The notes beneath the pieces are model-generated. The model was not told the origin of the DNA. It was given only the letters and a program-made list of their open reading frames with translations, and did no database searches. The position numbers were made by a program, and so were the translations under genes. A DNA stretch of 57,237 nt from Patescibacteria group bacterium (GTDB lineage: Bacteria; Patescibacteriota; Minisyncoccia; Phycocordibacterales; UBA9973): assembly GCA_038064635.1 (NCBI GenBank), contig JBBTSS010000007.1, positions 9,163 to 66,399 on the forward strand, in the 5' to 3' direction. Positions 6,178 to 57,237 of the stretch are shown one piece after another. How positions within the stretch are numbered: the first letter of the stretch is position 1; every line of letters starts with the position of its first letter.

Positions 6178-7308
6178 ATGAGTAATATTTTTGAGAAAAT
6201 TTTTGGTTCAACTTCAGGTACTTTAGGAAGTGCTTCTTCTGATAGTGTTATAGGTATAGACATAGGTTCTTCTGCTATCAAAGTTGTTGAGATAAAAAAG
6301 AAAGCAGGAAAAGCAGTATTGGAAACTTACGGAGCTATATCTTTAGGTACTTACGCAGATACTGACATTGGAAGAGTGACAAATTTACCAACAGAGAAAA
6401 CCATCGAAGCATTAAAAGAAGTTTTAAAACAATCAGGCGTTACAACTTCTTCTGTGGCTATGTCTGTGCCGATGCAGTCCAGTCTTATCTTTACTGTGGA
6501 TTTGCCTCCAAACATAAAAGAAAGTGAGATATCTACTATTGTTCCAACCGAAGCTCGAAAATATATACCTGTTCCGATAAACGAAGTTTCTCTCGATTAC
6601 TTTATCCTTCCTTCCAAAGAACCTTCTTTTGAAGAAGCAAATAATCCAGAACTTAGTTTAAATAAAAAAGATAAAACAGAAGTACTCGTAGTAGCTATTC
6701 AAAATGATGCAATATCTAAAATACGTTCTATTGTCTCTCAATGTAATTTAACAGCTTCATTTTTTGAAGTAGAGGTTTTTTCTTCCGTTCGTGCAAATTT
6801 TGAACATGAGTTATCTTTGGTTTTACTCGTAGACTTTGGTGCTTCTCGTACTAAATTGTCTTTAGTAGAGTTTGGTGTTGTAAAAGGCTATCATACTGTG
6901 AACCGCGGTGGAGCTGACATCACTGACTCAATATCAAAATCATTATCCATACCTTTTGCTGAAGCAGAAGAAATGAAAAAAGAATTTGGTCTTTTTGGTA
7001 ATCCAAATGAAAAAAATCTGGCTGATATCATAAAAGTGCACACTGACTATATCTTTAGTGAAACGAATAATGTATTATTAGGGTACGAGAAAAAATACGG
7101 TAGAACTATTACAAAAGTTATTTTCACTGGTGGCGGTGCGCTTTTGAAGGGAATGCAAGAAGTCGCAGTAAATAATTTTAAAGCTGAAGTTCAAGTAGGG
7201 CATCCTTTTTCTAAAGTTGGTGCACCTGCTTTTTTAGAAAAAGTACTACAAACCACCGGACCAGAGTTTGCTATCGCGATAGGACTTGCTCTCAGAAAGT
7301 TACAATAA
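6178..7308 (+). CDS. pilM: Type IV pilus assembly protein PilM (actin-like ATPase fold)
   Basis: IGIDIGSSAIKVVE... and ...FTGGGALLKG, the PilM/FtsA-like pattern. First gene of the pilus operon. Confidence 0.85.
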   Translation: MSNIFEKIFGSTSGTLGSASSDSVIGIDIGSSAIKVVEIKKKAGKAVLETYGAISLGTYADTDIGRVTNLPTEKTIEALKEVLKQSGVTTSSVAMSVPMQSSLIFTVDLPPNIKESEISTIVPTEARKYIPVPINEVSLDYFILPSKEPSFEEANNPELSLNKKDKTEVLVVAIQNDAISKIRSIVSQCNLTASFFEVEVFSSVRANFEHELSLVLLVDFGASRTKLSLVEFGVVKGYHTVNRGGADITDSISKSLSIPFAEAEEMKKEFGLFGNPNEKNLADIIKVHTDYIFSETNNVLLGYEKKYGRTITKVIFTGGGALLKGMQEVAVNNFKAEVQVGHPFSKVGAPAFLEKVLQTTGPEFAIAIGLALRKLQ

Positions 7309-7365
7309 TTTTCTGGAAATTGTTTCTTTAAATTAAAAATTATATTTCTTAACAAAATAGCTTTG

Positions 7366-7390
7366 CTAGAATTAATTCTAGAGTTATAAT
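7366..7390 (+). promoter_or_regulatory. Perfect 16-bp palindrome CTAGAATTAATTCTAG fused to a TATAAT -10 box (candidate operator plus internal promoter)
   Basis: Palindrome at 7366-7381 and TATAAT at 7385-7390, 8 nt before ATG 7399. Confidence 0.5.
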
Positions 7391-7398
7391 ACAAATAG

Positions 7399-8112
7399 AT
7401 GGATCAAAGTTTCCAAACATCATTTATACCAAAAAAGCCAGTAGTTGAAGAGAGAACAAAGGCGTCTAGACCTATGGGTCTTTTTACTATTATTGGTATT
7501 TTTATTTTTGTATCTATGGCACTTTCTTATGCTGGACTTTATTTCTATAAAGGGATACTTACTAAAAATATCACAGAAATGGAGAAGAATTTAACTTTAG
7601 CTAAAAATCGTTTTGAACCTGAAAAAATATCTCAACTAAAACTCTTGGATAGACGTTTGCGTTCATCTAATGAAATTTTATTAAAGCATATTGCTGTTTC
7701 ACCTATTTTTAAAGCTTTAAGTCAGGTTACTTTAAAAACTGTACGTTATACAAAATTTAGCTATGATTTAGCAGGGGATAAGAATTCTCAAATATTGGTA
7801 AAATTAAACGGTCAAGCGGTTGGGTATCGTTCTGTCGCTCTCCAAGCTGATATCTTAGCGAAAGATGAACGTGTAAATAAACATATTATCGATCCAGTCT
7901 TTTCAAACTTGTCACTTGATGATAAAGGAAATGTTTTGTTTGATTTAGAATTTTTTGTTGATGCTGATTTTGTTGATTATAGACAAGCTCTTGAAACTGA
8001 AAGTCCAGCTAATTCTGTCATTGAAAATGTAAATACAACTACACCCACCACGAATACTACGACTCCGAATTCTACAAATACAGACACAAAAGTAAAAGAA
8101 GATAATTTATAA
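7399..8112 (+). CDS. PilN-like pilus assembly protein (single TM plus coiled coil, Thr/Asn-rich tail)
   Basis: Position after pilM. N-terminal TM segment LFTIIGIFIFVSMALSYAGLYF followed by a coiled-coil-like region. Confidence 0.55.
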   Translation: MDQSFQTSFIPKKPVVEERTKASRPMGLFTIIGIFIFVSMALSYAGLYFYKGILTKNITEMEKNLTLAKNRFEPEKISQLKLLDRRLRSSNEILLKHIAVSPIFKALSQVTLKTVRYTKFSYDLAGDKNSQILVKLNGQAVGYRSVALQADILAKDERVNKHIIDPVFSNLSLDDKGNVLFDLEFFVDADFVDYRQALETESPANSVIENVNTTTPTTNTTTPNSTNTDTKVKEDNL

Positions 8113-8116
8113 AAAA

Positions 8117-8728
8117 ATGTTAAGACTTATCACACCAATTATTTTAATAGCTCTCTCTATCGGCGGATTCGTTCTTTTTGTAAGTCCTATGTATAAAGAG
8201 ACAAATGTTCTAAAAGAACAGGTTTCTTCTTACAATCAAGCATTAGATAACTCTAAGGCTCTTGAAAATGAAAGAGATAAATTGACTAAGAAATATAGCG
8301 CTATTGATCCTGTAAATTTAGATAAATTACAAAAACTTTTACCTGATAATGTTGATAATATCCGTTTAATATTAGAAATAGAAAAAATAGCTTCACCTTA
8401 CGGAATGATCTTAAAAGACGTAAAGTATGAGACAGAATCAAAAGCTGATAAAGCTGCTCCAAACACTACTGGTGGCGTAGGTACTGTTGCTGGAGGAACT
8501 CAAATTAAACAAAACAGCAAAGAATATGGCACATGGGACTTAGGTTTTTCTATTGAAGGTAAATATAATGATTTTATTAATTTTACTAAAGACTTAGAGA
8601 GTAATTTGAGAATAGTAGATATAGCTTCAATTCAATTCAATTCAGATGTACCTTTGACTGGAGCGAAATCCTTTTCAGAATCTTATAAGTATAGTTTTAA
8701 AGTTAAGACTTATTGGTTAAAAAATTAA
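8117..8728 (+). CDS. PilO-like pilus assembly protein
   Basis: N-terminal TM segment, coiled coil, then a C-terminal globular part. Called by synteny after the pilN-like gene. Confidence 0.5.
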   Translation: MLRLITPIILIALSIGGFVLFVSPMYKETNVLKEQVSSYNQALDNSKALENERDKLTKKYSAIDPVNLDKLQKLLPDNVDNIRLILEIEKIASPYGMILKDVKYETESKADKAAPNTTGGVGTVAGGTQIKQNSKEYGTWDLGFSIEGKYNDFINFTKDLESNLRIVDIASIQFNSDVPLTGAKSFSESYKYSFKVKTYWLKN

Positions 8729-8729
8729 A

Positions 8730-9269
8730 ATGTCACCAAAAATTAAAAACATAATACTTTTTGTGGGAATAGGTCTTGTATTGGCTGTTGTTTATTTTGT
8801 GTTTATAAAAAAAGCACCAGAAGAGCCAAACTTACAAACTGTTTCTTCTGGACTTACAACCACAACTACGAATGAGGTTTCTTCAGAACCAAAACAAGAT
8901 TCACAAATAGCAAAGGATTTTCTTGCGCTTTTACTTAGCGTAAAAGGAATTAATCTTGATGATAGTATTTTTGCGAATACTGCTTTTAGTCATTTGCGCG
9001 ATTCAAGTATTTTACTTGTTCAAGATGGAAATGAAGGACGTGCTAATCCTTTTGCTCCTATTGGCACTGACGTTGTTTCGACTCCAGTAACTACTACTGA
9101 CTTGAATGCTAGTGTCTTTGATGCGGGTATAGCGGCATCAGAAGAGCCTGAAATAAAAGCACCAGCTCCTAAAACTACAACTCCAAAAACAAATAGTTCT
9201 GCGGGTTCTTTTTCTCCTAGCTCTTTAAATGAGGTCGTACCACCATCAAATTCGTCTGGTACGAGATAA
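8730..9269 (+). CDS. Membrane-anchored Ser/Thr/Pro-rich protein of the pilus operon, unknown function
   Basis: N-terminal TM segment IILFVGIGLVLAVVYFVF. Tightly packed between the pilO-like gene and pilB. Confidence 0.55.
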   Translation: MSPKIKNIILFVGIGLVLAVVYFVFIKKAPEEPNLQTVSSGLTTTTTNEVSSEPKQDSQIAKDFLALLLSVKGINLDDSIFANTAFSHLRDSSILLVQDGNEGRANPFAPIGTDVVSTPVTTTDLNASVFDAGIAASEEPEIKAPAPKTTTPKTNSSAGSFSPSSLNEVVPPSNSSGTR

Positions 9270-9273
9270 AATT

Positions 9274-11028
9274 ATGAGCTTTTTAGAAGAATTAGTAAAA
9301 AGAAAAATAATAAATTCCGGCCAGATATTGGACATAAAAAATCTTGCACAAGAAAAATACGCAGGGGATGTGGAGGAAGCATTGCTCCAATCAGGCATAA
9401 CGGAAGACCAAATCCTTGAAGTAAAAGGGGAGTATTATAGTATTCCTGTAAAAAGGGTAAATATAAAAGAACTTTCTTTTGATATTTTGAAATATATTCC
9501 AGAAGACTCTGCTCGTTATTATCACTTTGTACCTTTTGCTCTTACTGAGGGTGTATTGGAAGTCGGAGTAACAGATCCTGAAGATATTCAAGGCATGGAT
9601 GCTTTGCAATTTATTTCTGCTAAATTAGGTATACCTTTTAAAATTTTTTTAATTCCTAAAAGTGATTATTTGGAAGTGATGAATAATTATAAGGGTCTTT
9701 CTGTCGAAGTGGAACAAGCTCTAGGTGAATTTGGAGCAGATGAACAAGATTTGAAAGAATTAGGAAAAGACTTAAGTAACTCTGATTTAAATAAAGAATT
9801 AAGCGACGTAAAAATGAAAGACGGAAAGATCGTCGAAGACGCTCCTATCATCAAAATAGTCGCTGTTATTTTACGTAATGCAATAGAAGGAAATGCTTCT
9901 GATATACACGTTGAACATATTGGAGAAAAAGTGAAAGTGCGTTACCGTGTAGACGGAACACTTCATACTACTATCATGCTTCCTACTAATGTTCACAGCG
10001 GTATTGTTGCTCGTGTAAAAATCTTAGCAAAACTTCATTTAGATGAAAAAAGAAAACCACAAGACGGATCTTTCACTACAAATATAGATGGACGCAAAGT
10101 AGACTTCCGTGTCTCTACTATGCCTGGTTATTATGGAGAAAAGATTGCTATTCGTATCTTAGATACTGAGAAAGGAGTTCGAACTTTAGACCAGCTTGGT
10201 CTTTCTCAAACGAATGTTGATATGGTTCGTGAAGCTATAAAAAAACCTTATGGACTTATCCTTGTTACAGGTCCTACTGGAGCCGGAAAATCAACCACCC
10301 TTTATTCAATTATGAATGAATTAGATAAAGAAAAAAGGAATGTTGTTACTCTTGAAGATCCTGTTGAATATAACATGCCAGACGTGAACCAGTCTCAGGT
10401 GATGCCAGAGATAGGGTATACTTTTGCATCAGGACTTCGTTCTATATTGCGTCAAGACCCAGATATTATAATTGTTGGAGAAATACGTGATAAAGAAACA
10501 GCTCAACTTGCTATACAAGCTGCCCTTACTGGACACTTGGTTTTATCAACTTTGCACACGAATAATGCTATCGGTGCTATTCCTCGTCTTGTAGATATGG
10601 GAGTTGATCCTTATCTTATTGCCCCGACTCTTATACTTTCTGTTGCTCAGCGTCTAGCTCGTGCTACCTGTAAGTCGTCAAAGAAACTTGTACCGATGGA
10701 TCCAAGTATTAAACTTCAGATTGAAAACCAGATGGCAGACATACCTCTTGAGTTTAAAAAGAACGTTGTTATAAAAGACGAGATGTACGACACTGTACCT
10801 TCTTCTGAATGTCCATCTGGAACTCGGGGGCGTATTGCTATATTTGAAATGTTTAGAGTTGATAAAGAGATTCAAAATGTTATTTTAAAAAATCCTATTG
10901 AATCTGAGATATATAAAGTTGCTAGAAAAAATGGTATGTTTATGATGAGGGAAGATGCTATGCTAAAGGCAGTAGAGGGTGTTATTCCTTTTAGTGACGT
11001 TTATAATTTTAGTAATGAAAATGAATAG
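9274..11028 (+). CDS. pilB: Type IV pilus assembly ATPase PilB (GspE family)
   Basis: Walker A GPTGAGKST, the Asp/His boxes, and a tetra-Cys-like region (TCKSS...ECPSGTRG). ATG 9274 is preferred over 9229 because it follows the upstream stop. Confidence 0.92.
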   Translation: MSFLEELVKRKIINSGQILDIKNLAQEKYAGDVEEALLQSGITEDQILEVKGEYYSIPVKRVNIKELSFDILKYIPEDSARYYHFVPFALTEGVLEVGVTDPEDIQGMDALQFISAKLGIPFKIFLIPKSDYLEVMNNYKGLSVEVEQALGEFGADEQDLKELGKDLSNSDLNKELSDVKMKDGKIVEDAPIIKIVAVILRNAIEGNASDIHVEHIGEKVKVRYRVDGTLHTTIMLPTNVHSGIVARVKILAKLHLDEKRKPQDGSFTTNIDGRKVDFRVSTMPGYYGEKIAIRILDTEKGVRTLDQLGLSQTNVDMVREAIKKPYGLILVTGPTGAGKSTTLYSIMNELDKEKRNVVTLEDPVEYNMPDVNQSQVMPEIGYTFASGLRSILRQDPDIIIVGEIRDKETAQLAIQAALTGHLVLSTLHTNNAIGAIPRLVDMGVDPYLIAPTLILSVAQRLARATCKSSKKLVPMDPSIKLQIENQMADIPLEFKKNVVIKDEMYDTVPSSECPSGTRGRIAIFEMFRVDKEIQNVILKNPIESEIYKVARKNGMFMMREDAMLKAVEGVIPFSDVYNFSNENE

Positions 11029-11078
11029 TTTATTTTAGGGTCGTTTTGTATTATAATAAGTTTAATTAATTTAAATAT

Positions 11079-11486
11079 ATGGAAGGAGATAAAAAGAAAA
11101 TTTTAATAGTTGATGATGATAGTTTTCTTTTAGATATGTATGCTTTTAAATTCAGTCAAAATAATTTTGAAGTACACACTGTATCAGATGGCTCACAAGC
11201 TTTAGATAAACTAAAAGGGGGATTAGTTCCAAATATTATTTTGATAGATGTTATCATGCCAGGAATGGATGGTTTTGAGGTTTTACAAAAAGTAAATGAA
11301 GAAAATCTTTCTCCAGATTCTATTAAAATAATTCTTTCAAATAAAAGTCAGCAGTCGGATATAGACAGAGGTCATTCATTGGGAGTGAGCGGTTATATCG
11401 TAAAAGCAAACTCGACTCCAGCTGAGGTTATCGACCAAGTGATAGAAATTTTGAATGCAACTCAAAAGATTGTTATTCCACAATAA
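11079..11486 (+). CDS. Stand-alone response-regulator receiver domain (CheY/PilH-like)
   Basis: VDDD acidic pocket, phospho-acceptor D in ILIDVIMPGMDG, and a conserved S and K (ILSNK, GYIVKA). Confidence 0.85.
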   Translation: MEGDKKKILIVDDDSFLLDMYAFKFSQNNFEVHTVSDGSQALDKLKGGLVPNIILIDVIMPGMDGFEVLQKVNEENLSPDSIKIILSNKSQQSDIDRGHSLGVSGYIVKANSTPAEVIDQVIEILNATQKIVIPQ

Positions 11487-11503
11487 TAAAATAATCATAA
11501 TTT

Positions 11504-12562
11504 ATGAATCATAAACAAGAATTAGAAGATCTTATTTTAACAGTGATACGAGAAGGTGGCTCAGACTTGCACATAGGAGCAGGTAGATCACCTGCTATTC
11601 GTGTATCTGGAGAACTTATTTTTTTGGTAAAACACGATCCTTTTAAACCTGAAGATATGGAAGGTCTTTTGAAAATAGTTTTTGATGAGAAGAAGTTTGA
11701 TAAATTTATGGAGTCGCAAGAGATGGACTTTTCTTATGATTTTCGTGGTGAAGCTCGACTTCGAGGTAACGCTTTTTTCCAAAAAGGATTAGTAAATTTA
11801 GTTTTTAGATTAATTCCAAAAGTAAAATCTCTTGGAGAACTTAGACTTCCTCCTGTTATAGCTGAAATTGCTCGGAAGAAACAAGGTTTCTTTTTGGTTG
11901 TAGGTCCAGTAGGTCAAGGTAAGTCTACTACTTTATCTGCAATGATAAATATAATAAACAAAGAACAGACAAAGCATATTGTTACTATTGAAGACCCTAT
12001 TGAGTATATGTACTCAGCGGACAAGTCCATAATCAATCAACGTGAAGTTGGCCTTGATACAAAAGATTTTCATACAGCATTACAATCAGTCTTTCGTGAA
12101 GACGTGAATGTCATATTAATCGGTGAAATGCGTACACCAGAAACTATTTCTACTGCGGTCACAGCGGCTGAGACTGGCCACTTGGTTTTCTCTACTCTTC
12201 ATACAAATAATGCCTCTCAAACAATAGATAGAATTATAGATTCTTTTCCAGCAGGTCAACAAGATCAGATTCGTGTACAACTTGCGTCCAGTTTATTGGG
12301 AATATTTTCTCAAAGACTTGTTCCTCGTATTGCTGGTGGGCTTGTACCTGCTTTTGAGTTGCTGTTAAATAACAACGCAGTATCAAACTTAATACGCGAA
12401 AAAAGAACTCATGAAATAGATGTTGTGATAGAGACAGGTATGGAGTCTGGCATGATCGACTTGAACCACTCACTTTTGGAATTAGTACGTACCGGTGAAA
12501 TATCTATTGAGAATGCTTATCAATACTCACTTAATCCAAAAGGATTAGAAAGAATGTTGTAA
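11504..12562 (+). CDS. pilT: Twitching-motility retraction ATPase PilT
   Basis: 352 aa. Walker A GPVGQGKST, HLVFSTLHTN, and a PilT-type C-terminus. Confidence 0.92.
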   Translation: MNHKQELEDLILTVIREGGSDLHIGAGRSPAIRVSGELIFLVKHDPFKPEDMEGLLKIVFDEKKFDKFMESQEMDFSYDFRGEARLRGNAFFQKGLVNLVFRLIPKVKSLGELRLPPVIAEIARKKQGFFLVVGPVGQGKSTTLSAMINIINKEQTKHIVTIEDPIEYMYSADKSIINQREVGLDTKDFHTALQSVFREDVNVILIGEMRTPETISTAVTAAETGHLVFSTLHTNNASQTIDRIIDSFPAGQQDQIRVQLASSLLGIFSQRLVPRIAGGLVPAFELLLNNNAVSNLIREKRTHEIDVVIETGMESGMIDLNHSLLELVRTGEISIENAYQYSLNPKGLERML

Positions 12563-12568
12563 AAAATT

Positions 12569-13777
12569 ATGTTATTTAAATATAAAGCAGTTGATGACAA
12601 AGGAATAAACAAAGAAGGGGAAATAGATGCTCCTAATAAAGACATTGCTATAAGTGGTCTTCAGAGACGGGGACTTATCATTTTGGCTATAAATGCAAAA
12701 GAAGACACCAAGTCTATTTTTAATAGAACCTTCTCTACAAAAGTACCAATGAAAGATGTAGTTATTCTTTCTCGTCAGATTGCTACACTTTTTGAAGCAC
12801 AAGTCTCTGCTTTGAAGGCTTTCAATATGCTTGCTGCAAATTCTGAAAATAAACTTTTAGGAGAAAAGTTAAATCAAATAGGAGATGATCTGCAAGCAGG
12901 TGTTTCTATTTCCGGGGCACTTTCTCGTCATCCAGATGTTTTTTCTGATTTTTATATAAACATGGTAAAAGCAGGAGAGGAAACAGGAAAGTTGAATCAG
13001 ACCTTTTTACATTTGGCTGAATATTTAGACAGACAGTATGCTTTAACTTCTAAGACCAGAAATGCTCTTATCTATCCGGCATTCGTTATCTTTACTTTTC
13101 TTGTAGTTATGACAGTGATGTTTGTCGTAGTTATACCGAGACTTTCTACTATTTTAAATGAATCCGGACAAGAAGTTCCTTTCTTTACAAAGATAGTCAT
13201 TGGATTTTCAGATTTTTTTGTAAATTATGGTTTCATTTTTGCAATTTCTTTAATTTTGTTTGGTATTTGGGTTTGGAGTCTTTCACGTACAGACAAAGGG
13301 AAAGAGTACATAGACAGAACACGTCTTTCTCTACCTGCTGTTGGTAATTTATATAGAAAACTTTATCTTTCTAGAATTGCAGACAACTTGGATACCATGC
13401 TTGTTTCAGGTATACCTATTGTGCGTTCCATTGATATAACTGCTGATGTTGTTAGTAGCCGTGTGTACAAAGATTTATTAAAAGACGTAGCTGATGGTGT
13501 GAAGTCTGGTCTTGCTTTGTCTGCTTCTTTTCAGAAATATCCAGATCAAATTCCAGGTATCATGGTACAGATGGTGAAAGTAGGAGAGGAGACAGGTTCT
13601 CTTGGTCAGATATTGAAAACATTAGCTGATTTCTATAAACGTGAAGTTGATGATGCAGTAGATACTCTCGTCGGGCTCATAGAACCTATTATGATAGTAG
13701 TACTTGGTCTCGGAGTAGGTATTTTATTGGTTTCTATACTGCTTCCTATTTACAACTTGGCTGGAGGTATAAATTAA
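12569..13777 (+). CDS. pilC: Type IV pilus platform protein PilC (GspF family)
   Basis: 402 aa with a duplicated GspF domain (VKAGEETGKL / VKVGEETGSL) and three TM regions. Confidence 0.92.
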   Translation: MLFKYKAVDDKGINKEGEIDAPNKDIAISGLQRRGLIILAINAKEDTKSIFNRTFSTKVPMKDVVILSRQIATLFEAQVSALKAFNMLAANSENKLLGEKLNQIGDDLQAGVSISGALSRHPDVFSDFYINMVKAGEETGKLNQTFLHLAEYLDRQYALTSKTRNALIYPAFVIFTFLVVMTVMFVVVIPRLSTILNESGQEVPFFTKIVIGFSDFFVNYGFIFAISLILFGIWVWSLSRTDKGKEYIDRTRLSLPAVGNLYRKLYLSRIADNLDTMLVSGIPIVRSIDITADVVSSRVYKDLLKDVADGVKSGLALSASFQKYPDQIPGIMVQMVKVGEETGSLGQILKTLADFYKREVDDAVDTLVGLIEPIMIVVLGLGVGILLVSILLPIYNLAGGIN

Positions 13778-13937: not shown

Positions 13938-14471
13938 ATGAAGAAAATTAATTTTAAGAAAGGTTTCACACTTATAGAACTTTTGGTTGTTATCGCTATC
14001 ATCGGTATCTTGGCTTCTGTTGTTCTTGCATCACTTAACACAGCAAGAGCAAAAGGAAATGACGCTTCAATCAAAGCAACTCTAGCTGGTATTCGTGCTC
14101 AAGCTGAAGTTGTATATGATGCAAATGGTTGTTACGCAGACGGTGTTGCTGCAGGTTCTGGTTGTGCTGCAGGTGCAGTTGCTCCAGCTGCTTGTGCTAC
14201 TTCAGGTGCTGGTTTTACAGATACAATCTTTGGAGAAGCGACTGTTGCTTCTCAAATCGCAGCTGCAAAAGCTAACTCTCTAAACACTTTGAACGCTTGT
14301 GCTTCTACTGCTAACCAAGGTGCATGGGCTATCGTAACTCAACTTAAGAGTTCTGGTACAGCTGGATGGTGTGTTGACAGTACAGGAAAATCAAAGCAAG
14401 TTACTTTAGCTACTGCTGACCAAGCTGGTGCTACTGCTGAAGTTAACGCTTCAGGTGCTTGTGTAGAATAG
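13938..14471 (+). CDS. pilA: Type IV major pilin (prepilin with N-methylation motif), copy 1
   Basis: KKGFTLIELLVVIAIIGILA class III signal. Ala/Gly/Cys-rich C-terminal domain containing WCVDSTGKS. Confidence 0.92.
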   Translation: MKKINFKKGFTLIELLVVIAIIGILASVVLASLNTARAKGNDASIKATLAGIRAQAEVVYDANGCYADGVAAGSGCAAGAVAPAACATSGAGFTDTIFGEATVASQIAAAKANSLNTLNACASTANQGAWAIVTQLKSSGTAGWCVDSTGKSKQVTLATADQAGATAEVNASGACVE

Positions 14472-14643: not shown

Positions 14644-15177
14644 ATGAAGAAAATTAATTTTAAGAAAGGTTTCACACTTATAGAACTTTTGGTTGTTATC
14701 GCTATCATCGGTATCTTGGCTTCTGTTGTTCTTGCATCACTTAACACAGCAAGAGCAAAAGGAAATGACGCTTCAATCAAAGCAACTCTAGCTGGTATTC
14801 GTGCTCAAGCTGAAGTTGTATATGATGCAAATGGTTGTTACGCAGACGGTGTTGCTGCAGGTTCTGGTTGTGCTGCAGGTGCAGTTGCTCCAGCTGCTTG
14901 TGCTACTTCAGGTGCTGGTTTTACAGATACAATCTTTGGAGAAGCGACTGTTGCTTCTCAAATCGCAGCTGCAAAAGCTAACTCTCTAAACACTTTGAAC
15001 GCTTGTGCTTCTACTGCTAACCAAGGTGCATGGGCTATCGTAACTCAACTTAAGAGTTCTGGTACAGCTGGATGGTGTGTTGACAGTACAGGAAAATCAA
15101 AGCAAGTTACTTTAGCTACTGCTGACCAAGCTGGTGCTACTGCTGAAGTTAACGCTTCAGGTGCTTGTGTAGAATAG
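14644..15177 (+). CDS. pilA: Type IV major pilin, copy 2 (100% identical protein)
   Basis: The translation is identical to 13938-14471. Confidence 0.92.
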   Translation: MKKINFKKGFTLIELLVVIAIIGILASVVLASLNTARAKGNDASIKATLAGIRAQAEVVYDANGCYADGVAAGSGCAAGAVAPAACATSGAGFTDTIFGEATVASQIAAAKANSLNTLNACASTANQGAWAIVTQLKSSGTAGWCVDSTGKSKQVTLATADQAGATAEVNASGACVE

Positions 15178-15422: not shown

Positions 15423-18400
15423 ATGCAAAAAGTATCAAGTCTTAAGTTTTTGTTAAGTTTCTTTGTGTTTTTTGTTTTTATGTTTTTCGCTAATAATGCG
15501 AATGCAAATATTATTTATTCTCAGTTAGATGATAGTGTAGAAATACCAAATTCAAGTATTGGTGCTTCTCCAGATGCTTCTTTTACGGAAGTAGCAGGAC
15601 ATATAAAAAATCTAAAGTTTGCTTACCATGATTATGGTAATGGCCCGGGCCATTTTATTGGTGTAGCTGTTGTGGATTTAGATGCAGGTATTAGTTATTA
15701 TGCTCACAAAATAGGAACGCCTAATGGCTGTGGATCTTCTTATGAATCAACAGGCTTAAATGCAAAAACGATTGTTGAATTCGACGAGACTTATGAATAC
15801 AAAGCATATCCATGTACGGGATCAAACCTTGTTTTAGATTCAACTCATAAATATGGAATAACCATGTTTAGAAATTCAGGCGGTGCAGATACTCAAAGAT
15901 TTTATGGTTCTAGTACCAACACAAAAGATTTGTATTGGTACGTAGAAAATGATAGTAATTTTCATGACGCTCAAAATTCAGTAACTTCTTTTGTGTTATC
16001 AAATTTTAACCCTTCCGTAGTCGGAGTAGTAGACGAACCTTCTCGTACTATAAATATAGCAGTTCCTTTTGGTCAAGATATTTCAAGTATTACACCAGAC
16101 GTTGTTGTATCAGATGGAGCTACTTATAGTCCAAGTGGGGCGCAAAATTTTAATTTACCTGTTACTTATACTGTAACTGCCGTAGATGGTGCTATTAAAA
16201 AATATAAGGTTAAAGTTACTATAAATTGTGCTGTTGGTTGTATTGAATCTGCTGCCTATAATCAAGTTGATGATTCAGTTGAAATTAATCAATCTTCTAT
16301 AAGTGCTTTCAATACTTTTACAGGATACTCCGGTAGTGTTGCAGATTTAAAATTCTCTTACCATGATCATGGTAATAGTGCGGGGCATTTTATTGCTGTT
16401 TCTATTGTTGATTTCACTGCAGGTGTTAGTTATTATGCTGTAACAGGAAATACAGGCTGTGGTAATTCTTATCAATCAAAAGGATTAAATGCTAAGACTG
16501 TTGTAGATTTTGATTCTTCTACTAAATATAAAGCATATCCATGTACTGGGGATAATCTAGTTTTAGATGAGACCCATACCTATGGAGTAACCATGTTTAG
16601 AAATTCAGGCGGTGCAGATACTCAAAGATTTTATGGTTCTAGTGATTCAAATAATGATGTTTCTTTGCAAATAAAGACACATAAAGTCTCTCCTGATTTT
16701 ACTAAGCCAGAAACATTACCAACTCTTGTTGGAATGTTAGGTACAAATGATTGGCATACTTCTGATGTAACATTATCTTTCACTGCTACTGACGATTTAT
16801 CTGGAGTTTTGAATACTAAGTACTCATTAGACAATGGTATTACTTGGAATATCTACGTAAGTCCAGTCGTCTTTTCAAATGAAGGTACTCATGTGGTGAA
16901 ATATAAATCTGAAGATTTATTAGGTAATGTTGAAGATGAACAAACAGTAGAAATAAAAATAGATAAGACAGCTCCAAATACGACGCACGACATTGTGGGT
17001 ACACAAGGTGAAAATAATTGGTATGTATCTAATGTTGATTTTTCTTTAAATCCTATTGACACAACCTCTGAAGTGTTTGAAATACTTTATTCTCTTGATC
17101 AGGGTATAACTTGGCTTCCGTATTCTGTTGCTTTATCTTTAGTTGATGGAGATAATGCTGTTTTATATAAATCAGTAGATTTTGCTGGGAATGAAGAAGT
17201 TGTTCACTCTATCAATGTAAAAGTAGATACAGTAAGTCCAATATCTACTCCAGTGGTAGCTGGAGAAGAAGGCATGAATGGTTGGCTTACTTCTAGTGCT
17301 GTACTAGACTTTACTGCAACAGATGACACTTCTCTTGTTTCTACAATAGAGTATTCAGTGAATAATGGCCCATGGGAAATTTACAGCACTCAACTATCTT
17401 TTAATACTGGTACTTATGTTATTAAATACAAAGCAAAAGATAATGCAGGTAATATAGAAGATGAGCAAACTATAACTACAAGCGTAGATAGTAATGCGCC
17501 AGTTACTACAATAAATGTAAATGGTACTTTAGGCACAGAAGATTGGTATGTTTCTGCTACTAATTTTGAATTTAGTGCAGTTAGCGAACCTTCAGGTATT
17601 TTAAAGACAGAGTATTCACTTGATGGGGGAGTTACTTGGAATTTATTCAACGGTAGTCCTGTTTTGTTGTCTGAAGGCATTGATGTCGTGTCTTATAAAT
17701 CTACAAATAACGCAGGTGTAGTTGAACAAGTTCGAAATACTACAATAAAAGTAGATTTAACAAATCCAAATACAACTCACACTGTTTCTGGTACATCTGG
17801 AACGAACGGTTGGTATACATCTGACACTACTTTATCTTTAAACGCAACTGACGCTGGTTCTGGAATTTTAAGGACTGAATATTCAGTAGATGAAGGAATG
17901 ACTTGGAATGAATATATTAACCCGATAGTTTTTAATGAAAATTTAGTTCAGAATGTTTTATATAAATCTACTGACAGTGCAGGAAACATAGAAATTGAGA
18001 AAACATTTTCTATGAAAATAGATAAAACAGCCCCTGAAGCAAAGATTGTGTTTGATCCAAATACTAAAGATCTTTCAGTCGTGGGGATAGATGCAGATTC
18101 TAATACAACTATCGTACTGACAGCTACTTCAGCTCTTGTGACAAATGAGGCAGGAAGAACAGTAGAAGTTAAGTTTTCAAAGTTTGTAGGTACGGATAAA
18201 AAAATAAAATTGGAGATTAGTGAACTTAAATACAATGGGATTTCTAATGGAGTTTTCACTAAAAAAGTTACTTTAAGATATCAATGGCAGTTAAACAGTA
18301 GTGGTCAAATAAAACAACTCACAGAAAAAGCTGTCGTAGGTAAAGATAAAGTAACAGGTAATTACAAATTGAATCCACATGACGCGACTAAAATCGTGAA

Positions 18401-18566
18401 GAAAGTCAAAAAAGTCAATGAACAAGGGGATTATGACGACGACGAAAATTTCGATGACGGTGATGAGGGTTGTGATGATAAGCCGAAAACTAAAAGAGAA
18501 ACTCTTCATGGCTTAGTACTAGTAGGTTTTGAAACGAGTCAAGGCCAAGTTAACACAGTTTTTTAG
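15423..18566 (+). CDS. Large secreted multi-repeat surface protein (putative pilus-locus adhesin)
   Basis: 1047 aa with a signal-like N-terminus ending ANNANA. Contains two copies of an unassigned module of about 140 aa, one Ig-like module, five tandem modules of about 88 aa, and an acidic tail. Confidence 0.85.
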   Translation: MQKVSSLKFLLSFFVFFVFMFFANNANANIIYSQLDDSVEIPNSSIGASPDASFTEVAGHIKNLKFAYHDYGNGPGHFIGVAVVDLDAGISYYAHKIGTPNGCGSSYESTGLNAKTIVEFDETYEYKAYPCTGSNLVLDSTHKYGITMFRNSGGADTQRFYGSSTNTKDLYWYVENDSNFHDAQNSVTSFVLSNFNPSVVGVVDEPSRTINIAVPFGQDISSITPDVVVSDGATYSPSGAQNFNLPVTYTVTAVDGAIKKYKVKVTINCAVGCIESAAYNQVDDSVEINQSSISAFNTFTGYSGSVADLKFSYHDHGNSAGHFIAVSIVDFTAGVSYYAVTGNTGCGNSYQSKGLNAKTVVDFDSSTKYKAYPCTGDNLVLDETHTYGVTMFRNSGGADTQRFYGSSDSNNDVSLQIKTHKVSPDFTKPETLPTLVGMLGTNDWHTSDVTLSFTATDDLSGVLNTKYSLDNGITWNIYVSPVVFSNEGTHVVKYKSEDLLGNVEDEQTVEIKIDKTAPNTTHDIVGTQGENNWYVSNVDFSLNPIDTTSEVFEILYSLDQGITWLPYSVALSLVDGDNAVLYKSVDFAGNEEVVHSINVKVDTVSPISTPVVAGEEGMNGWLTSSAVLDFTATDDTSLVSTIEYSVNNGPWEIYSTQLSFNTGTYVIKYKAKDNAGNIEDEQTITTSVDSNAPVTTINVNGTLGTEDWYVSATNFEFSAVSEPSGILKTEYSLDGGVTWNLFNGSPVLLSEGIDVVSYKSTNNAGVVEQVRNTTIKVDLTNPNTTHTVSGTSGTNGWYTSDTTLSLNATDAGSGILRTEYSVDEGMTWNEYINPIVFNENLVQNVLYKSTDSAGNIEIEKTFSMKIDKTAPEAKIVFDPNTKDLSVVGIDADSNTTIVLTATSALVTNEAGRTVEVKFSKFVGTDKKIKLEISELKYNGISNGVFTKKVTLRYQWQLNSSGQIKQLTEKAVVGKDKVTGNYKLNPHDATKIVKKVKKVNEQGDYDDDENFDDGDEGCDDKPKTKRETLHGLVLVGFETSQGQVNTVF
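15861..15914 (+). repeat. 54-nt exact repeat (partner at 16590-16643) inside the two N-terminal modules
   Basis: ACCATGTTTAGAAATTCAGGCGGTGCAGATACTCAAAGATTTTATGGTTCTAGT occurs twice, encoding TMFRNSGGADTQRFYGSS. Confidence 0.85.
16590..16643 (+). repeat. 54-nt exact repeat (partner at 15861-15914)
   Basis: See partner entry. Confidence 0.85.
16711..18036 (+). repeat. Five tandem modules of about 265 nt (88 aa), Ig-like/OmpL47-type
   Basis: Recurrent pattern G.NGW[YH]TSD..L...A.D..SG...TEYS.D.G.TW..Y...V.....G...V.YKS.D.AGN.E......I.IDKT.P. Confidence 0.8.
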
Positions 18567-45001: not shown

Positions 45002-45937
45002 ATGGCAAACAGGCACCTTTCAAGATCAATAGTTCTCCAAACCCTATTTGAATGGGATTTTATGTCTTCTGGTAAAGATGAAGAGTCTTTTCCTCCTGAA
45101 AAAGTTTCCGTAGCTCTCGCTCGTAATTTGAAAGAATTTGGACCAGGTCTTGAAGATGATGCTTTTGTTGAGTCTCTTGTTGATCTTGTATTGAAAAAAA
45201 GAAAGATTGTAGATGATATTATAGAAAAAGCTGCTCCTGATTGGCCTATACAAAAGATATCTATTGTTGATAGAAATATTCTTCGTATCGGTTTGACCGA
45301 GCTCCTTTTTGGTGACCGTACACAAGTACCTCCGAAAGTCGCCATCAATGAGTCTATTGAGCTTGCAAAAACTTTTGGTGGAGAGAATTCTGGTAAATTC
45401 GTAAATGGTGTACTTGGTGCAGTCTATAAAGAAATAGGTGAACCAGGTAAAGAAGAAACTAGTAAAAAGAAAAAGGAAGTAGAGCCAGTAGACATAACCA
45501 AACTTCCAAAAGAAAAACTCGGAGGAGCATTGGTTTATGCAAAAAGAGACGGTAATACATATTTTGCTTTTGTACATGATGTTTTCGGATATTGGACGCT
45601 TTCTAAAGGAAGTATAAAAGAAGGAGACGATTTAGAAGAAGGCACAATTAGAGAGATAAAAGATGAAATAGGGCTTGAAATTAAAATAATCACAAAACTT
45701 GGTGAAAATGAATACGTAGCTACACATCCTGAAAAAGGAAAGACTTTAAAGCAAGTGGCGTACTTTTTGGCAGAATCAGAATATAGAGAGCTTGTGCTGG
45801 AGAGTTCAGGTGGGCTTGATTCTGCACGATGGTTTTTATTGAAAGAGATTCCAGAATTAAGAATTTACAATGATATTGTTCCTCTCATCTCAAAAGCAGT
45901 AGAGATTATTGCTAAAGGAGATAAGCCAAAGGCTTAA
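45002..45937 (+). CDS. nusB: NusB antitermination factor fused to a NUDIX hydrolase domain
   Basis: The N-terminal 150 aa or so are NusB-like ([13 protein letters not shown]..., [27 protein letters not shown]). A Lys/Glu linker follows, then the Nudix box [23 protein letters not shown]. Confidence 0.85.
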
Positions 45938-50262: not shown

Positions 50263-52194
50263 TTATCTAGTTGTCTTAGAATTAGGAGAAGTTTCTATTT
50301 TAGGAATTTGGAATTTTATTTTTTCTTCTTTACCTGGAATTATTTTATCTGGTTGAAATACTTTGTTTAACTTTACAATATTTTTCTTTGTAGTCATTGA
50401 ACCATCTCTGTGTAGTTTAAGTTCTAGAAGCATTCCTTGCATAGTGTTGGTTGAAAACTTTTGATCAAAAATAAAGTTTCCGAGAGAGTAAGCAATGAAA
50501 CTGTTTTTATATACTTCTGTATCTTGGATTACATGAGGATGATGCCCTATGACTATTTTTGCTCCAGCATCTACTGCTTTGTGAGCTAAGTATTCTTGTC
50601 TTTTATTGTGAGTAGTTTTGTACTCGTCACCAAAGTGAAATGACACCACTAGGTAGTCTACTTGTTTTGAAGCGTTTGCTACGATTTCACTAAAACGAGG
50701 ATTACTCGCGAGTAATAGCCCTGAGTTTTCTTCGGTGACTTTCATCCAGTTCGGTCCAACATCAGAGAACCCAAGGTAACCTATCTTCATACCGTATTTT
50801 TCAATAATAGTAGGATTTTCTGCTTCGGATAATGTTCCTCCACCAGTGTAGAGTATTTCATTTTCTTTAAGTCTTGCTAGGGTATCTGTATATGCAGTAC
50901 GGCCCCAGTCTCCGACGTGATTGTTCGCCATAGAGACTATGTCTATACCTCCACCTTTAAGTGCAGGTACAACAGAAGGGTCCATACGGAAAGAGTAAAC
51001 ACTTCCACCGTCACTTCCTCTATTTGAAGCTGTGCCTTCTAAGTTTGCAAAAACGATGTCAGATTTTTTTAATATTTCTAATTTTTCAAAAAGTGCTGAG
51101 TAGTCACCATCAAAGTTTTTATTAACAGAATTTCGGACTCCACGATCAAGCATGATGTCCCCACCAAAAGCGAGGGTCACATAGTCAGGTTCTCGTAAGT
51201 CTGGTAAGTCGAGTCTTTCTTTTATCCAGTCAGCACTTGCGTCGGATGCTCCACCATAATAAACATTTTTCTTTAGGTATTTTAAAATATTTATTACGTC
51301 TTTTTGTCTGTCACTACTACGCAACAATACTATGCCCACAGGACGGGTTCCTTCTTTTCCGAGTGGTAAAGAGAAGGTAGATATGACTGTTTGTTTTGCA
51401 GGATCAGTAAAGCCACTTTTACCACCTATATAGCCACTTTCTCTTAAAAATTGATTTGTACTAAACCAGGTGTGCTTTTTATTTGTGTAGCTTCTGTTTG
51501 TAGTTATCTTTAATATGTTTTCTCTTTGTTGTTTCAAGTATCCTGTGAGTTTAAATAAGTCCGACACAGTAGACTGATTTTTCTCAGATAGTCCGCTAGG
51601 GTCACTATAAGAAGTTGAAGACATTTTTAATTTCTCAGCTTGAAGATTCATCTTGCTCATAAACGTATCTCGTCCGAAATGCTCAGCTATGATTTCTGCT
51701 GCATCATTACTAGACTCAAGTAAAAGAGGGTAGATGAGGTCGGGTACTTTTACTTTTTCTCCAACTCTAAAATTTCCATTTTCTCCATAAGTCGCTAACG
51801 CTTTTTTACTTACTTTTGCTATCTGTTCATCAGTATTTGTAGTGAGTTCATTTGCTACAAGTGCAGTCATCAGTTTTGATACAGAAGCTATTGGGTATTT
51901 CTTTTCAGCATTTTTAGCAAGTATCACTTCACCAGTATTTAAGTCTCCGACGATATAACTTTCTGCGGATATCTTTGGTTTTAAATTTTCTTCTTTTACA
52001 AAATAAAAATACGTAGGTTTATTTATACCAGGAGTAACGGCATCATTTACTAATGCCATATTTTCTATGTTTTTTTCATTTATTTTTACATACGTAGCAC
52101 CTGTAAAAATCATAGAAGCAAAAAATATTCCCGTACCGATAGCGAGTAGAGTAAAAAATCCTAATTTTATTTTTTCTTTAAATGGTTTTTGCAT
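50263..52194 (-). CDS. Fusion: S11 D-alanyl-D-alanine carboxypeptidase (N-terminal) plus CapA/PgsA-type metallophosphatase domain (C-terminal)
   Basis: N-terminal TM segment. SxxK (SVSKLM), SxN (SSND) and KSG motifs. CapA-like motifs then follow: GGDIMLDRG, FANLEG, ANNHVGDWG, GHHPHV. Confidence 0.85.
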   Translation of the reverse strand: MQKPFKEKIKLGFFTLLAIGTGIFFASMIFTGATYVKINEKNIENMALVNDAVTPGINKPTYFYFVKEENLKPKISAESYIVGDLNTGEVILAKNAEKKYPIASVSKLMTALVANELTTNTDEQIAKVSKKALATYGENGNFRVGEKVKVPDLIYPLLLESSNDAAEIIAEHFGRDTFMSKMNLQAEKLKMSSTSYSDPSGLSEKNQSTVSDLFKLTGYLKQQRENILKITTNRSYTNKKHTWFSTNQFLRESGYIGGKSGFTDPAKQTVISTFSLPLGKEGTRPVGIVLLRSSDRQKDVINILKYLKKNVYYGGASDASADWIKERLDLPDLREPDYVTLAFGGDIMLDRGVRNSVNKNFDGDYSALFEKLEILKKSDIVFANLEGTASNRGSDGGSVYSFRMDPSVVPALKGGGIDIVSMANNHVGDWGRTAYTDTLARLKENEILYTGGGTLSEAENPTIIEKYGMKIGYLGFSDVGPNWMKVTEENSGLLLASNPRFSEIVANASKQVDYLVVSFHFGDEYKTTHNKRQEYLAHKAVDAGAKIVIGHHPHVIQDTEVYKNSFIAYSLGNFIFDQKFSTNTMQGMLLELKLHRDGSMTTKKNIVKLNKVFQPDKIIPGKEEKIKFQIPKIETSPNSKTTR

Positions 52195-54271: not shown

Positions 54272-54300
54272 TTGACAAAATGTCTACTTTATGCTAAGAT
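54272..54300 (+). promoter_or_regulatory. Near-consensus sigma-70 promoter TTGACA-17-TAAGAT with an extended -10 TG
   Basis: -35 at 54272-54277, TGc at 54292-54294, and -10 at 54295-54300. A GAGGGA SD-like element lies 9 nt before ATG 54356. Confidence 0.7.
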
Positions 54301-54355
54301 ACTCAAGTAATGGTTTTATTTTATTCTCAAATTTTATATTTGAGGGATACATATC

Positions 54356-55552
54356 ATGTTTAAGAAAAATAACAAAAAATCAAAAAAAGGCTTAAAAATA
54401 AAGGCGCTACTCATAGCTTTAGTGATGGTTTTTGTATATGTATTTCCTCCTGATAAGGCAGAAGCTTGTTGCTGTCCATGTGATTTTTATATTCCTGGAA
54501 ATTACTGGGTACCAGGTAATTACTGGATCCCAGGAGATTACCCAATACCAGGAGACTATTGGACTCCTGGAAGTTATCCTACACCAGGAAGTTATTGGAC
54601 TCCGGGCGATTATCCTGTTCCTGGAAATTACTGGGTACCAGGTAATTACTGGATCCCAGGAGACTACGTCGTTCCTGGAAGCTATCAAATTCCTGGAGGA
54701 TATATTGTTCCTGGAAATTACATCGTTCCTGGAAGTTATGTTGTAAATGGAAGTTATATTATACCTGGAAGTTACCAGATACCCGGAAATTATATCGTCC
54801 CTGGAAGTTATCAAATACCTGGTAGTTATGTTGTTCCCGGAAGTTACGTCGTGCCTGGTAGTTATGTTACTACTGGAAATTATCAAGTGCCCGGAAGTTA
54901 CGTGGTTCCAGGAAGTTACACTACTACTGGAAGTTATCAAGTTCCTGGTAGTTATGTCGTTCCTGGAAGTTATATTCTGGAAGGAGGAGGAAGTTACACT
55001 GTACCAGGTAGCTATGTTGTAGAAGGTGGAGGTAGTTACAATGTTCCTGGTAGTTATGTTGTTCCCGGAAGTTACGCTACGACTGGCAGTTACAATGTGC
55101 CTGGAAGTTATGTTACTACTGGAAGTTACAACGTACCTGTTGCAAGTTATAACGTTCCAGGTAGTTACATCACAACAGGAAGCTATGACGTACCTGTGGC
55201 TAGTTACTCTGTACCTGGCAGTTATCAAGTTCCTGGAAGCTATGTTGTTCCCGGAAGTTATGATGTAGTTAATCCTCATTATTCAGTACCTGGAAGTTAT
55301 TCAGTAGTAGGTAGTTATGATACACCAGGGAATTATTCAGTGGTAGGTAGTTATAATACACCCGGAGATTATTCTGTTGTTGGAAACTACTCAACACCCG
55401 GAGACTACTCTGTGGTTGGAAATTATTCAACACCAGGGGACTATTCTGTTCCTGGATACGGACTCACTTCCTCTGCTTCAGAGCCAAATTCTGGAAATAA
55501 CAACACTATAAGTTATGCTGGTTTTAATTCTCACGAACCTTATACACAATAA
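54356..55552 (+). CDS. Membrane-anchored hexapeptide-repeat protein, about 50 copies of [PTV]G[SND]Y-x-[VIT]
   Basis: The N-terminal basic region plus TM segment (KALLIALVMVFVYVF) is followed by a CCCPC motif, then an uninterrupted 6-residue periodicity, then a Ser/Asn-rich tail. Confidence 0.75.
   Translation: MFKKNNKKSKKGLKIKALLIALVMVFVYVFPPDKAEACCCPCDFYIPGNYWVPGNYWIPGDYPIPGDYWTPGSYPTPGSYWTPGDYPVPGNYWVPGNYWIPGDYVVPGSYQIPGGYIVPGNYIVPGSYVVNGSYIIPGSYQIPGNYIVPGSYQIPGSYVVPGSYVVPGSYVTTGNYQVPGSYVVPGSYTTTGSYQVPGSYVVPGSYILEGGGSYTVPGSYVVEGGGSYNVPGSYVVPGSYATTGSYNVPGSYVTTGSYNVPVASYNVPGSYITTGSYDVPVASYSVPGSYQVPGSYVVPGSYDVVNPHYSVPGSYSVVGSYDTPGNYSVVGSYNTPGDYSVVGNYSTPGDYSVVGNYSTPGDYSVPGYGLTSSASEPNSGNNNTISYAGFNSHEPYTQ
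54494..55462 (+). repeat. 18-nt periodic tandem repeat array (coding) with higher-order 126-nt and 36-nt units
   Basis: A 44-nt exact repeat occurs at 54494 and 54620 (offset 126). The 3' end has PGDYSVVGNYST three times, a 36-nt unit. Confidence 0.85.
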
Positions 55553-55605
55553 ATATATTAACTTATAAATTTGCTTTTTAGTCAAAATTGTTATAGATTA
55601 TCCTT

Positions 55606-57168: not shown

Positions 57169-57196
57169 TTGACAAAAGTCTTAAAATAAGTATACT
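57169..57196 (+). promoter_or_regulatory. Sigma-70-type promoter TTGACA-16-TATACT
   Basis: Downstream of trmD. It presumably drives the next gene, beyond the window. Confidence 0.5.
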
Positions 57197-57237
57197 ATCT
57201 TTGATTGTATGGATTGAGTTTCGGATGTACTCCAATC

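Follow-up and report, generated by a model that had tools for sequence, protein, structure and literature searches.

A putative exported protein family with tyrosine-anchored hexapeptide repeats in Candidatus Nomurabacteria

Among the described proteins closest to the one reported here are the left-handed beta-helix (LbH) enzymes (PF00132), such as LpxA and gamma-carbonic anhydrase, which have a six-residue period with one aliphatic and one Gly position. Phage proteins related to the YdcK beta-solenoid repeat (PF18836) and to bactofilins keep the same register as x-G-[ND]-A-x-V; they are cytoplasmic and carry neither a signal peptide nor a Cys cluster. A looser analogue is the silk fibroin heavy chain, an extracellular fibre of GAGAGX hexapeptides (X = A, S, Y or V) that combine small residues with Tyr, and for which a low-confidence AlphaFold2 (AF2) beta-solenoid (with a predicted local distance difference test score, or pLDDT, of ~50) has been proposed (PMC11217467). 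Here, we describe a protein with Tyr-anchored hexads encoded in a 57,237-nucleotide stretch of contig JBBTSS010000007.1 (assembly GCA_038064635.1, a Patescibacteria group bacterium), which we refer to as the window. Its coding sequence (54356..55552, plus strand; 398 amino acids plus stop) is the sole long open reading frame (ORF) of the region.

Could such a hexad array form an ordered fibre on the cell surface? The features described below are consistent with an exported, abundant and fast-evolving envelope protein of Candidatus Nomurabacteria that forms an ordered, beta-structured fibre, a reading for and against which we consider the case evenly balanced.

The tyrosine-hexad array and its family

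The array spans 54482..55450 on the plus strand (residues 43-365) and consists of 52 Tyr-anchored units with the consensus P-G-[SND]-Y-x-[VTI]; an earlier note on this DNA had given it the same extent, 323 residues. When each unit is numbered from its Tyr (position 0), Pro occupies −3 in 37 of the 52 units, Gly −2 in 49, Ser −1 in 33 (Asn in 10, Asp in 7), Tyr position 0 in all 52, and Val +2 in 32 (Thr in 12, Ile in 7 and Leu in 1). The 398-residue protein contains 57 Tyr. The six-residue period had been called strict; it is exact in 47 of the 52 Tyr-to-Tyr steps between Tyr50 and Tyr363, but five units are longer, the spacing being 8 in two (EGGGSY) and 7 in three (PVASY, VNPHY), and every length irregularity is located at the −3 (turn) position. 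The array is not collagen-like, as the earlier note had also stated, since Gly occurs once per six residues and not every third. The mature chain contains no Lys, no Arg and 15 Asp/Glu, in keeping with an extracellular protein; Pro, Gly and Ser make up ~40% of it, and Val, Ile and Tyr ~35% of the array.

The repeat drifts along the protein from PGNYWV through PGSYVV to TPGDYSVVGNYS, as had been described. The first hexads (PGNYWV, PGDYPI; 54482..54667, plus strand) are Trp/Pro-rich and form a 36-nt super-repeat, and the last part of the array (55279..55450, plus strand) is a 12-residue super-repeat, TPGDYSVVGNYS, also with a 36-nt period, as seen with Tandem Repeats Finder on the window and on the related locus L001 and in hexad profiles. 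A polar, non-repetitive C-terminal tail follows (residues 366-398; 55451..55549, plus strand), and its translation contains no sorting signal or transmembrane (TM) segment. At the DNA level, Tandem Repeats Finder returned an 18-nt period with higher orders of 36, 42, 54 and 57 nt. The 18-nt period and 36-nt units of the earlier note were thus recovered, but its 126-nt units are only 92/126 identical in the stretches that begin at the longest exact duplicate; this duplicate, which lies within the Trp/Pro-rich part, is 46 nt long, with its copies starting at 54492 and 54618, where the earlier note gave 44 nt and starts at 54494 and 54620.

How does this repeat compare with the known hexapeptide folds? 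Its hexad spacing had been considered formally compatible with a left-handed beta-helix type, but the array departs from that definition in both registers. With i placed at +2, the [LIV] position of the LbH pattern is largely occupied as expected (Val 32, Ile 7, Leu 1, and Thr 12 of 52), but the small [STAV] residue at i+4 is replaced by Tyr in 52 of 52 units. If Gly is instead set at i+1, as in the LpxA-type register, position i is taken by Pro in 37 of the 52 units, and no position varies more than i+4. The Hexapep hidden Markov model (HMM) gave no match at E values up to 10 and the YdcK-repeat model gave none either; PDB sequence matches were weak (LpxA, E 0.04, per-domain E 0.35; ferripyochelin-binding protein). 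Furthermore, unlike the LbH enzymes, the window protein has no catalytic domain and is predicted to be exported.

The register itself recurs among phage proteins. PHROGs returned phrog_31248 (E 1.3e-26), and the phage tblastn matches point to proteins such as Ruminococcus phage phiRM10 gp34, a cytoplasmic (GNAxVS)n protein that scores 1.5e-41 and 3.5e-10 with the YdcK repeat and bactofilin HMMs. BLASTP aligns the window protein with gp34 without gaps over >100 residues, P-G-N-Y-W-V over S-G-N-A-W-V (E 8e-21); both E values are inflated by the periodicity. On the other hand, the window protein has no PF18836 or PF04519 match, whereas gp34 does, and it carries Tyr in place of the small Ala in every unit. 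Judged from this alignment of registers, the window repeat is a canonical beta-helix hexapeptide with Tyr where a small, inward-pointing residue belongs. Silk fibroin differs further: it is an animal protein with no homology to the window protein, with Tyr in a minority of its units and with different terminal domains.

The earlier note knew of no characterised family with this repeat, and the searches agree. Pfam gave only sub-threshold noise for the window protein (Drf_FH1, 22 bits against a cut-off of 40, which is Pro-rich noise), and NCBIfam gave no match. Word-indexed protein searches with the window protein, the five-member family profile and the L029 protein returned no relative, their candidate lists being saturated or empty. 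The window protein and its four relatives (see below) were absent, as exact sequences, from public protein collections; relatives were likewise missing from a metagenome scan with the conserved promoter block and from metagenome and viral contigs scanned with 8-mer peptides, and a literature search on Tyr-rich hexapeptide surface proteins in the Candidate Phyla Radiation (CPR) found nothing relevant. An exhaustive HMMER search gave 520 matches. The 150 of them that were listed are all periodicity analogues (tail-fibre-like, YadA-like, giant-virus-like PKGNYQPAGDY and zinc-ribbon PGxYGQ types), and none of these 150 combines a signal peptide, CxC and Tyr hexads.

Public data also hold other uncharacterised repeats with Tyr every six residues, for which Pfam has no family, namely SSSYAxTASY (tail-fibre-like), PKGNYQPAGDY, a (PTSYVx)n protein with a signal peptide, and GxYCGxGxYC (proteins P0025, P0039, P0086, P0061; P0021, P0078, P0104; P0132; P0095).

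The relatives of the window gene were found through its genomic position. Its left neighbours are divergent and encode a DD-carboxypeptidase/PGA_cap fusion and RNase R; to the right lie the genes for ribosomal protein S16 (rpsP), a KhpA-type KH protein and TrmD, and farther away are type IV pilus genes and genes for a ligase, gyrase B, PheRS and others. A search with RNase R in the species-representative genome set yielded 73 loci, almost all from Candidatus Nomurabacteria or Paceibacteria (Patescibacteria), the best relative being that of L001 (89-93% identity); the organism of the window is itself a Candidatus Nomurabacteria. In 64 loci, the order of PGA_cap/DD-carboxypeptidase and RNase R, divergent from S16 and KH, is kept; the start-to-start interval between the RNase R and S16 genes is essentially empty in about half of these and contains a variable gene in the rest.

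Besides the window, four loci (L001, L029, L050 and L061) have a Tyr-hexad gene in this rnr-rpsP slot. All five genes share the slot, a TTGACAAA box with an extended −10 element, a signal peptide with a K-L-K n-region and a hydrophobic segment, AxA followed by CxC, hexads of the form [GA]-x-Y-x-[VTAS]-x, and the lack of a terminator. The units themselves are LTPADY/VLADYL in L001, PGFYxV/NGxxxV in L029, NGQYQS in L050 and ASYLAS/AQAAYT in L061, and what the family has in common is Tyr at 0, flanked by a polar residue at −1, with Gly or Ala at −2 and either a small or a beta-branched residue at +2. The first units are aromatic-rich in all five mature chains (GxYW; F/Y/W-rich in L029), with an aromatic residue after Tyr in the first hexads of L001, L050 and L061 as well. 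The mature parts of three proteins contain 0-1 Lys plus Arg, and Arg does not exceed one in any of the five.

The window 12-mer TPGDYSVVGNYS agrees at every position with the L001 unit TPADYQVLADYL, so the repeats of these two proteins are homologous and not convergent. Despite this, L001 and the window share only 34% identity in the hexad protein (unit LTPADY against PGSYVV) beside a 100% identical S16, which indicates that the hexad gene evolves far faster than its surroundings. By these shared features, the five proteins form a small, previously undescribed and fast-diverging family tied to the rnr-rpsP slot.

At other loci (L002-L072), the slot contains small exported proteins, many of them L-x-G-C lipoproteins with an IETPG motif and Gly/Tyr/Asn-rich tails; in L010, it holds a toxin-antitoxin-like pair, and other loci have other genes. 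The lipoproteins with Gly/Tyr/Asn-rich tails (L009, L023, L024, L028, L059 and L068) resemble the hexad proteins in slot, orientation, export and Tyr/Gly-rich low-complexity C-terminal parts. Unlike the hexad proteins, they have a canonical L-x-G-C lipobox, no six-residue period, no CxC, and a GC-rich terminator before the rpsP promoter, and homology between the two groups is not evident.

Fold of the array

AlphaFold was run without an alignment. The AF2 model of the full-length protein had a pLDDT of 39.8, rising to 57.9 for residues 107-208, and this core showed short strands every 6 residues and longer ones every 18. The best Foldseek match for the core model was the bactofilin 6ria (TM 0.59, E 0.22; not significant), and the other matches were also beta-solenoids without significance (DUF3494 ice-binding beta-helices, Ag43 and LbH enzymes). 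The beta-solenoid fold proposed earlier is plausible for the hexad array, as the 18-residue strand period of the model suggests, but the model speaks for it weakly at a pLDDT of 58.

Conservation within the units gives a second view. The position entropy in the window protein is 0.37, 0 and 1.42 at −2, 0 and +2, compared with 1.40, 1.48 and 3.08 at −3, −1 and +1, and this difference between a conserved and a variable face is a trend in four of the five proteins, L050 being the exception. Because positions −2, 0 and +2 lie on one face of an extended strand, the Gly-Tyr-Val face would be the core or an interface. The earlier note had envisaged a displayed ladder of tyrosines; since Tyr shares the conserved face with Gly at −2 and Val/Thr at +2, while the opposite face is variable in four of five proteins, a buried or interface location is likelier for the tyrosines than a displayed one.

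Several points weigh against an ordered fibre. The structure models are of low confidence, and no Foldseek match reached E < 0.06. An 18-residue turn would have nine inward side chains, three of them Tyr, which is bulkier than any canonical triangular beta-helix core. The Pro/Gly/Ser-rich composition would also suit a disordered or elastomer-like chain, and the units of L050 and L061 are Gln/Asn- or Ala-rich, with weaker beta propensity. Moreover, the copy number of 52 units was read from a single assembly, and the family is known from five genomes, so that the conservation statistics are those of five sequences.

The main rival, which we consider unlikely, is an intrinsically disordered or elastomer-like secreted polymer. 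Its tyrosines would make an extracellular matrix sticky or cross-linkable (dityrosine, Tyr-Cys) and would not be part of an ordered solenoid. The Pro, Gly and Ser content and the low AF2 confidence are in its favour, as are the tolerance of five units of 7-8 residues, the resemblance of VPGSY to an elastin-type Pro-Gly turn (comparators being elastin VPGxG, resilin SYGAP and silk GPGGY motifs), and the Gly/Tyr-rich low-complexity tails encoded by other genes of the same slot. However, Pro is not conserved, position −3 being L/P in L001, N/D in L050 and S/Y/Q in L061, whereas the alternation of small-x-Tyr-x-small/beta-branched residues is, and such a face-specific pattern is unexpected for a random coil. 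The Val, Ile and Tyr content of the array and the confinement of length irregularities to one position of the unit also argue against it.

Another possibility, distinctly unlikely in our view, is that the chain does not fold by itself and that three copies intertwine into a homotrimeric fibre (triple beta-helix or beta-spiral) of the kind found in phage tail fibres with hexad repeats. The N-terminal CxC would then link the chains in a disulfide knot and so fix their register, much as Cys-Cys staples collagen III. The strongest HMMER matches are phage tail-fibre-like hexad proteins (TGSxxL, SSSYAxTASY; P0001, P0025, P0039, P0086), which have long six-residue runs, some with Tyr every six; P0001 (E 1e-44), for example, ends in a Peptidase_S74 chaperone, and the further matches include the SSSYAxTASY proteins. 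A weak PDB match to a gp5 beta-helix chimera and the invariance of CxC at the mature N-terminus are likewise consistent with a trimer. On the other hand, these matches reflect a common periodicity and not a common architecture. The tail-fibre-like proteins are far larger and multi-domain, have either a C-terminal S74 chaperone or no Pfam match, lack a signal peptide and CxC, and stand in unrelated genomic contexts. In the window protein, Pfam detects no Peptidase_S74, receptor-binding or other trimerisation domain; its neighbours are chromosomal housekeeping genes and no relatives occur in the viral contigs scanned. Furthermore, these bacteria typically inhabit anoxic environments, in which it is uncertain that disulfides would form.

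Export, expression and reading frame

After the initial MFKKNNKKSKKGLKIK, the protein has a hydrophobic segment of 14 residues, then PPDKAEA and CCCPC. Residues 1-37 (54356..54466, plus strand) are a predicted Sec signal peptide with a Lys-rich n-region (8 Lys within residues 1-16), a 14-residue h-region, ALLIALVMVFVYVF, within the usual 7-15 residues, and a c-region, PPDKAEA, with small residues at −3 and −1 in the form of AxA. The Cys cluster CCCPC (residues 38-42; 54467..54481, plus strand) is the predicted mature N-terminus, and its family equivalent is CxC. In the alignment of the five family members, K14, K16, A35, A37, C38 and C40 are invariant, and the junctions between signal peptide and mature chain read AEA-CCCPC, AQA-CDC, AEA-CGC, ASA-CFC and AKA-CFC, with a further CDC after CGC in one protein. 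AF2 places a helix at residues 11-29. The earlier note had taken this segment for a single TM helix that anchors the protein in the membrane; because the h-region is short, is broken by Pro-Pro, and is followed by an AxA that is invariant in all five proteins with Cys directly behind it, the N-terminus looks like a cleavable Sec signal peptide instead.

Could the protein be a lipoprotein, cut by Lsp before Cys38, with diacylglycerol on the Cys and the fibre lipid-tethered to the cytoplasmic membrane? An invariant Cys right after a hydrophobic segment, Ala at −1 and −3 relative to it, and the abundance of lipoproteins in the same slot of related genomes would fit. However, the lipobox [LVI][ASTVI][GAS]C is not present: the window reads AEAC and the family AQAC, AEAC, ASAC and AKAC, of which that of L050 alone fits loosely. 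Four of the five proteins have Glu, Gln or Lys at −2, and published lipobox patterns exclude these residues there. Moreover, clear-cut lipoproteins in the same slot and lineage carry L-x-G-C (L-[STV]-G-C) and not A-x-A-C. We therefore regard lipidation as quite improbable.

The gene is preceded by a promoter at 54272..54300 (plus strand) that was found by a consensus scan, with the −35 element TTGACA (54272-54277), a 17-nt spacer, TG at 54292-54293, and the −10 element TAAGAT (54295-54300). A block upstream of the gene, AGCTTGACAAAATGTCTA...TATGCTA, is identical in L001, and the TTGACAAA box and the extended −10 (TGnTAnnnT) stand upstream of all five hexad genes despite their differing repeats. 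Judging from this conservation of −35 and extended −10 in members whose repeats differ, the hexad promoter is meaningful, and the gene is probably highly transcribed. The earlier note was right about the promoter elements but not in calling them the only near-consensus promoter of the window, as 21 sites score at least 10/12 and one, at 57169, scores 11/12. This best match (57169-57197, TTGACA-16-TATACT) lies just after trmD, presumably ahead of the next ribosomal-protein gene.

A strong promoter might simply be that of the rpsP operon; this was rejected, as rpsP keeps its own conserved promoter directly upstream. The latter (55571..55597, plus strand; TTGCTT ... TGTTATAGA; ~60 loci compared) begins 19 nt past the hexad-gene stop and ends ~8 nt before the rpsP ATG (55606). 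No terminator-like site was found on the plus strand between 53900 and 56000, and in all five loci the hexad gene runs into rpsP without a terminator, whereas slot lipoprotein genes elsewhere end in GC-rich hairpins. Across ~60 Nomurabacteria loci (for example, L003, L009 and L013), the rpsP promoter (TTGCCT/TTGCTT, ~16 nt, TGTTAAACT-like) ends 6-9 nt before the ATG, which implies a leaderless rpsP mRNA in this group.

The hexad gene of the window has a 5' leader of ~55 nt (54301..54355, plus strand) with a small hairpin (54325-54345), the SD-like site GAGGGA (54342-54347), and a 17-codon upstream ORF (uORF; 54310-54363). The SD-like site sits within the hairpin, which is weak; a riboswitch or structured leader was rejected, as Rfam gave no match for the leader and its fold energy is no better than that of shuffled sequences (z = −0.57). 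L001 also has a leader of ~55 nt, but neither the SD-like site nor the uORF of the window is conserved there. The hexad genes of L029, L050 and L061 begin 6-9 nt past the −10 box, as expected for leaderless mRNAs. The uORF (MVLFYSQILYLRDTYHV) starts 9 nt past the −10 box, in a leaderless position, and its TAA overlaps the main ATG (ATGTTTAA), so termination-reinitiation coupling would be possible. In the window as a whole, the starts at 450, 3753, 4280, 7399, 54215 (minus strand) and 56430 lie directly behind a −10-like box. Because an SD-like 4-mer occurs at −20..−4 in only 4 of the 49 window ORFs, and many starts follow a −10-like box, this genome seems as a rule to initiate translation on leaderless mRNAs; the hexad gene is one of the few with an SD-like site, as had been claimed.

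Within the array, the codon entropy of Gly across the 52 units is 0.14, 0.32 and 1.32 at positions 1, 2 and 3; TA is fixed in the Tyr codon of all 52 units (TAT 32, TAC 20), and codons for Pro, Gly, Tyr and Val vary most at their third position. Given this variation at third positions in the presence of constant Gly and Tyr codons, the plus frame of 54356-55552, which the earlier note took as the translated one, is, on codon usage, under protein-level selection, and the four relatives with the same design agree with this. On the same reading, the open frames in other phases and on the other strand, including a 286-aa frame on the minus strand, are by-products of the repeat. A RiPP precursor encoded on the minus strand or in another frame was rejected: it runs against the codon pattern, no maturase gene lies nearby, and a weak HxsA4 match (E 0.13) is noise.

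Two further readings are very improbable. A beta-solenoid that binds ice or acts like an antifreeze, through a binding face that is flat and repetitive, would suit the ladder-like regularity and the several DUF3494 proteins among the top weak Foldseek matches, but these matches have E values of at least 0.08 and TM scores from 0.2 to at most 0.43, Pfam gives no DUF3494 match, and the exposed face is variable and not a conserved Thr/Ser/Ala ladder. Likewise, an assembly artefact, or a gene that yields no such protein because it is decaying or because another frame or strand is used, might be suspected from repetitive DNA in a metagenome assembly, the minus-strand frame and the missing exact match in public protein collections, but this is already largely refuted: gross assembly collapse is unlikely because the units are diverged from each other (60-88% matching in Tandem Repeats Finder) with a longest exact repeat of only 46 nt, the codon-position pattern is compatible with the plus frame only, and the same design, signal peptide and conserved promoter recur in four independent assemblies.

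Elsewhere in the window, two adjacent 177-aa ORFs (13938-14471 and 14644-15177) with identical 25-nt upstream sequences follow the PilM/PilB/PilT-like/PilC genes (6178-13777) and are probably duplicated pilin genes. Directly after them, at 15423-18566, a product of 1047 aa is encoded that matches BNR/Asp-box, Big_13 and CHB_HEX_C weakly and may be a large surface protein linked to the pilus locus. Two fusions were also seen, NusB with a NUDIX domain (45002-45937) and D-Ala-D-Ala carboxypeptidase (Peptidase_S11) with a PGA_cap capsule-synthesis domain (50263-52194), the latter adjoining RNase R in most loci.

A proposed envelope fibre

How might the parts work together? The perfect TTGACA and the extended −10 would drive transcription of the hexad gene, running on without a terminator into rpsP-khpA-trmD. 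The Lys-rich N-terminus and short hydrophobic segment would direct the protein to the Sec pathway, and cleavage after AEA would leave a mature chain that starts at the Cys cluster. The 52 hexads may then adopt a regular beta-structure, the likeliest form being a solenoid in which each turn takes up three hexads (18 residues), or else an equivalent intertwined fibre. Tyr, together with Gly/Ala two residues before and Val/Thr/Ala two residues after, would form the core or a subunit interface, the Tyr ring filling the space left by Gly, and the other three positions of the hexad would be solvent-exposed and free to vary. The Cys cluster and the Trp-rich first hexads would be the part closest to the cell, with a possible role in anchoring or oligomerising the fibre. 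That near-identical genomes have completely different repeats could result from slippage of the repeats together with selection acting on the exposed face. A structural or adhesive surface/envelope fibre is the likely role.

A bolder version, which we think rather unlikely, is that the five proteins share an unseen fibre architecture. It would be a beta-solenoid or three-chain beta-helix with a core or interface made of a stack of ~50 Tyr fitted against Gly and an N-terminal Cys knot as a staple or anchor. Such a protein, made at a high level, would be the main fibre with which Nomurabacteria cover their surface or attach, and repeat turnover would rewrite its exposed face more quickly than any other gene of the region changes.

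If the protein were merely a low-complexity secreted filler, the outcome would be a modest annotation, a new hypothetical-protein family in one candidate phylum. If it is ordered, a Tyr/Gly-stack solenoid or fibre would add a new solution to the hexapeptide beta-helix theme and be a possible scaffold for protein materials. A large share of bacterial diversity, most of it uncultured, belongs to the Patescibacteria (CPR), and many of them are thought to live attached to other cells; to our knowledge, almost nothing has been described of their surface proteins. A strong conserved promoter, an export signal, the lack of a curated family and fast repeat turnover together characterise a surface component that is abundant and subject to diversifying pressure. 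A Tyr-stack fibre of this kind, if true, would provide an ultra-small, probably episymbiotic bacterium with a hypervariable contact surface for hosts or phages.

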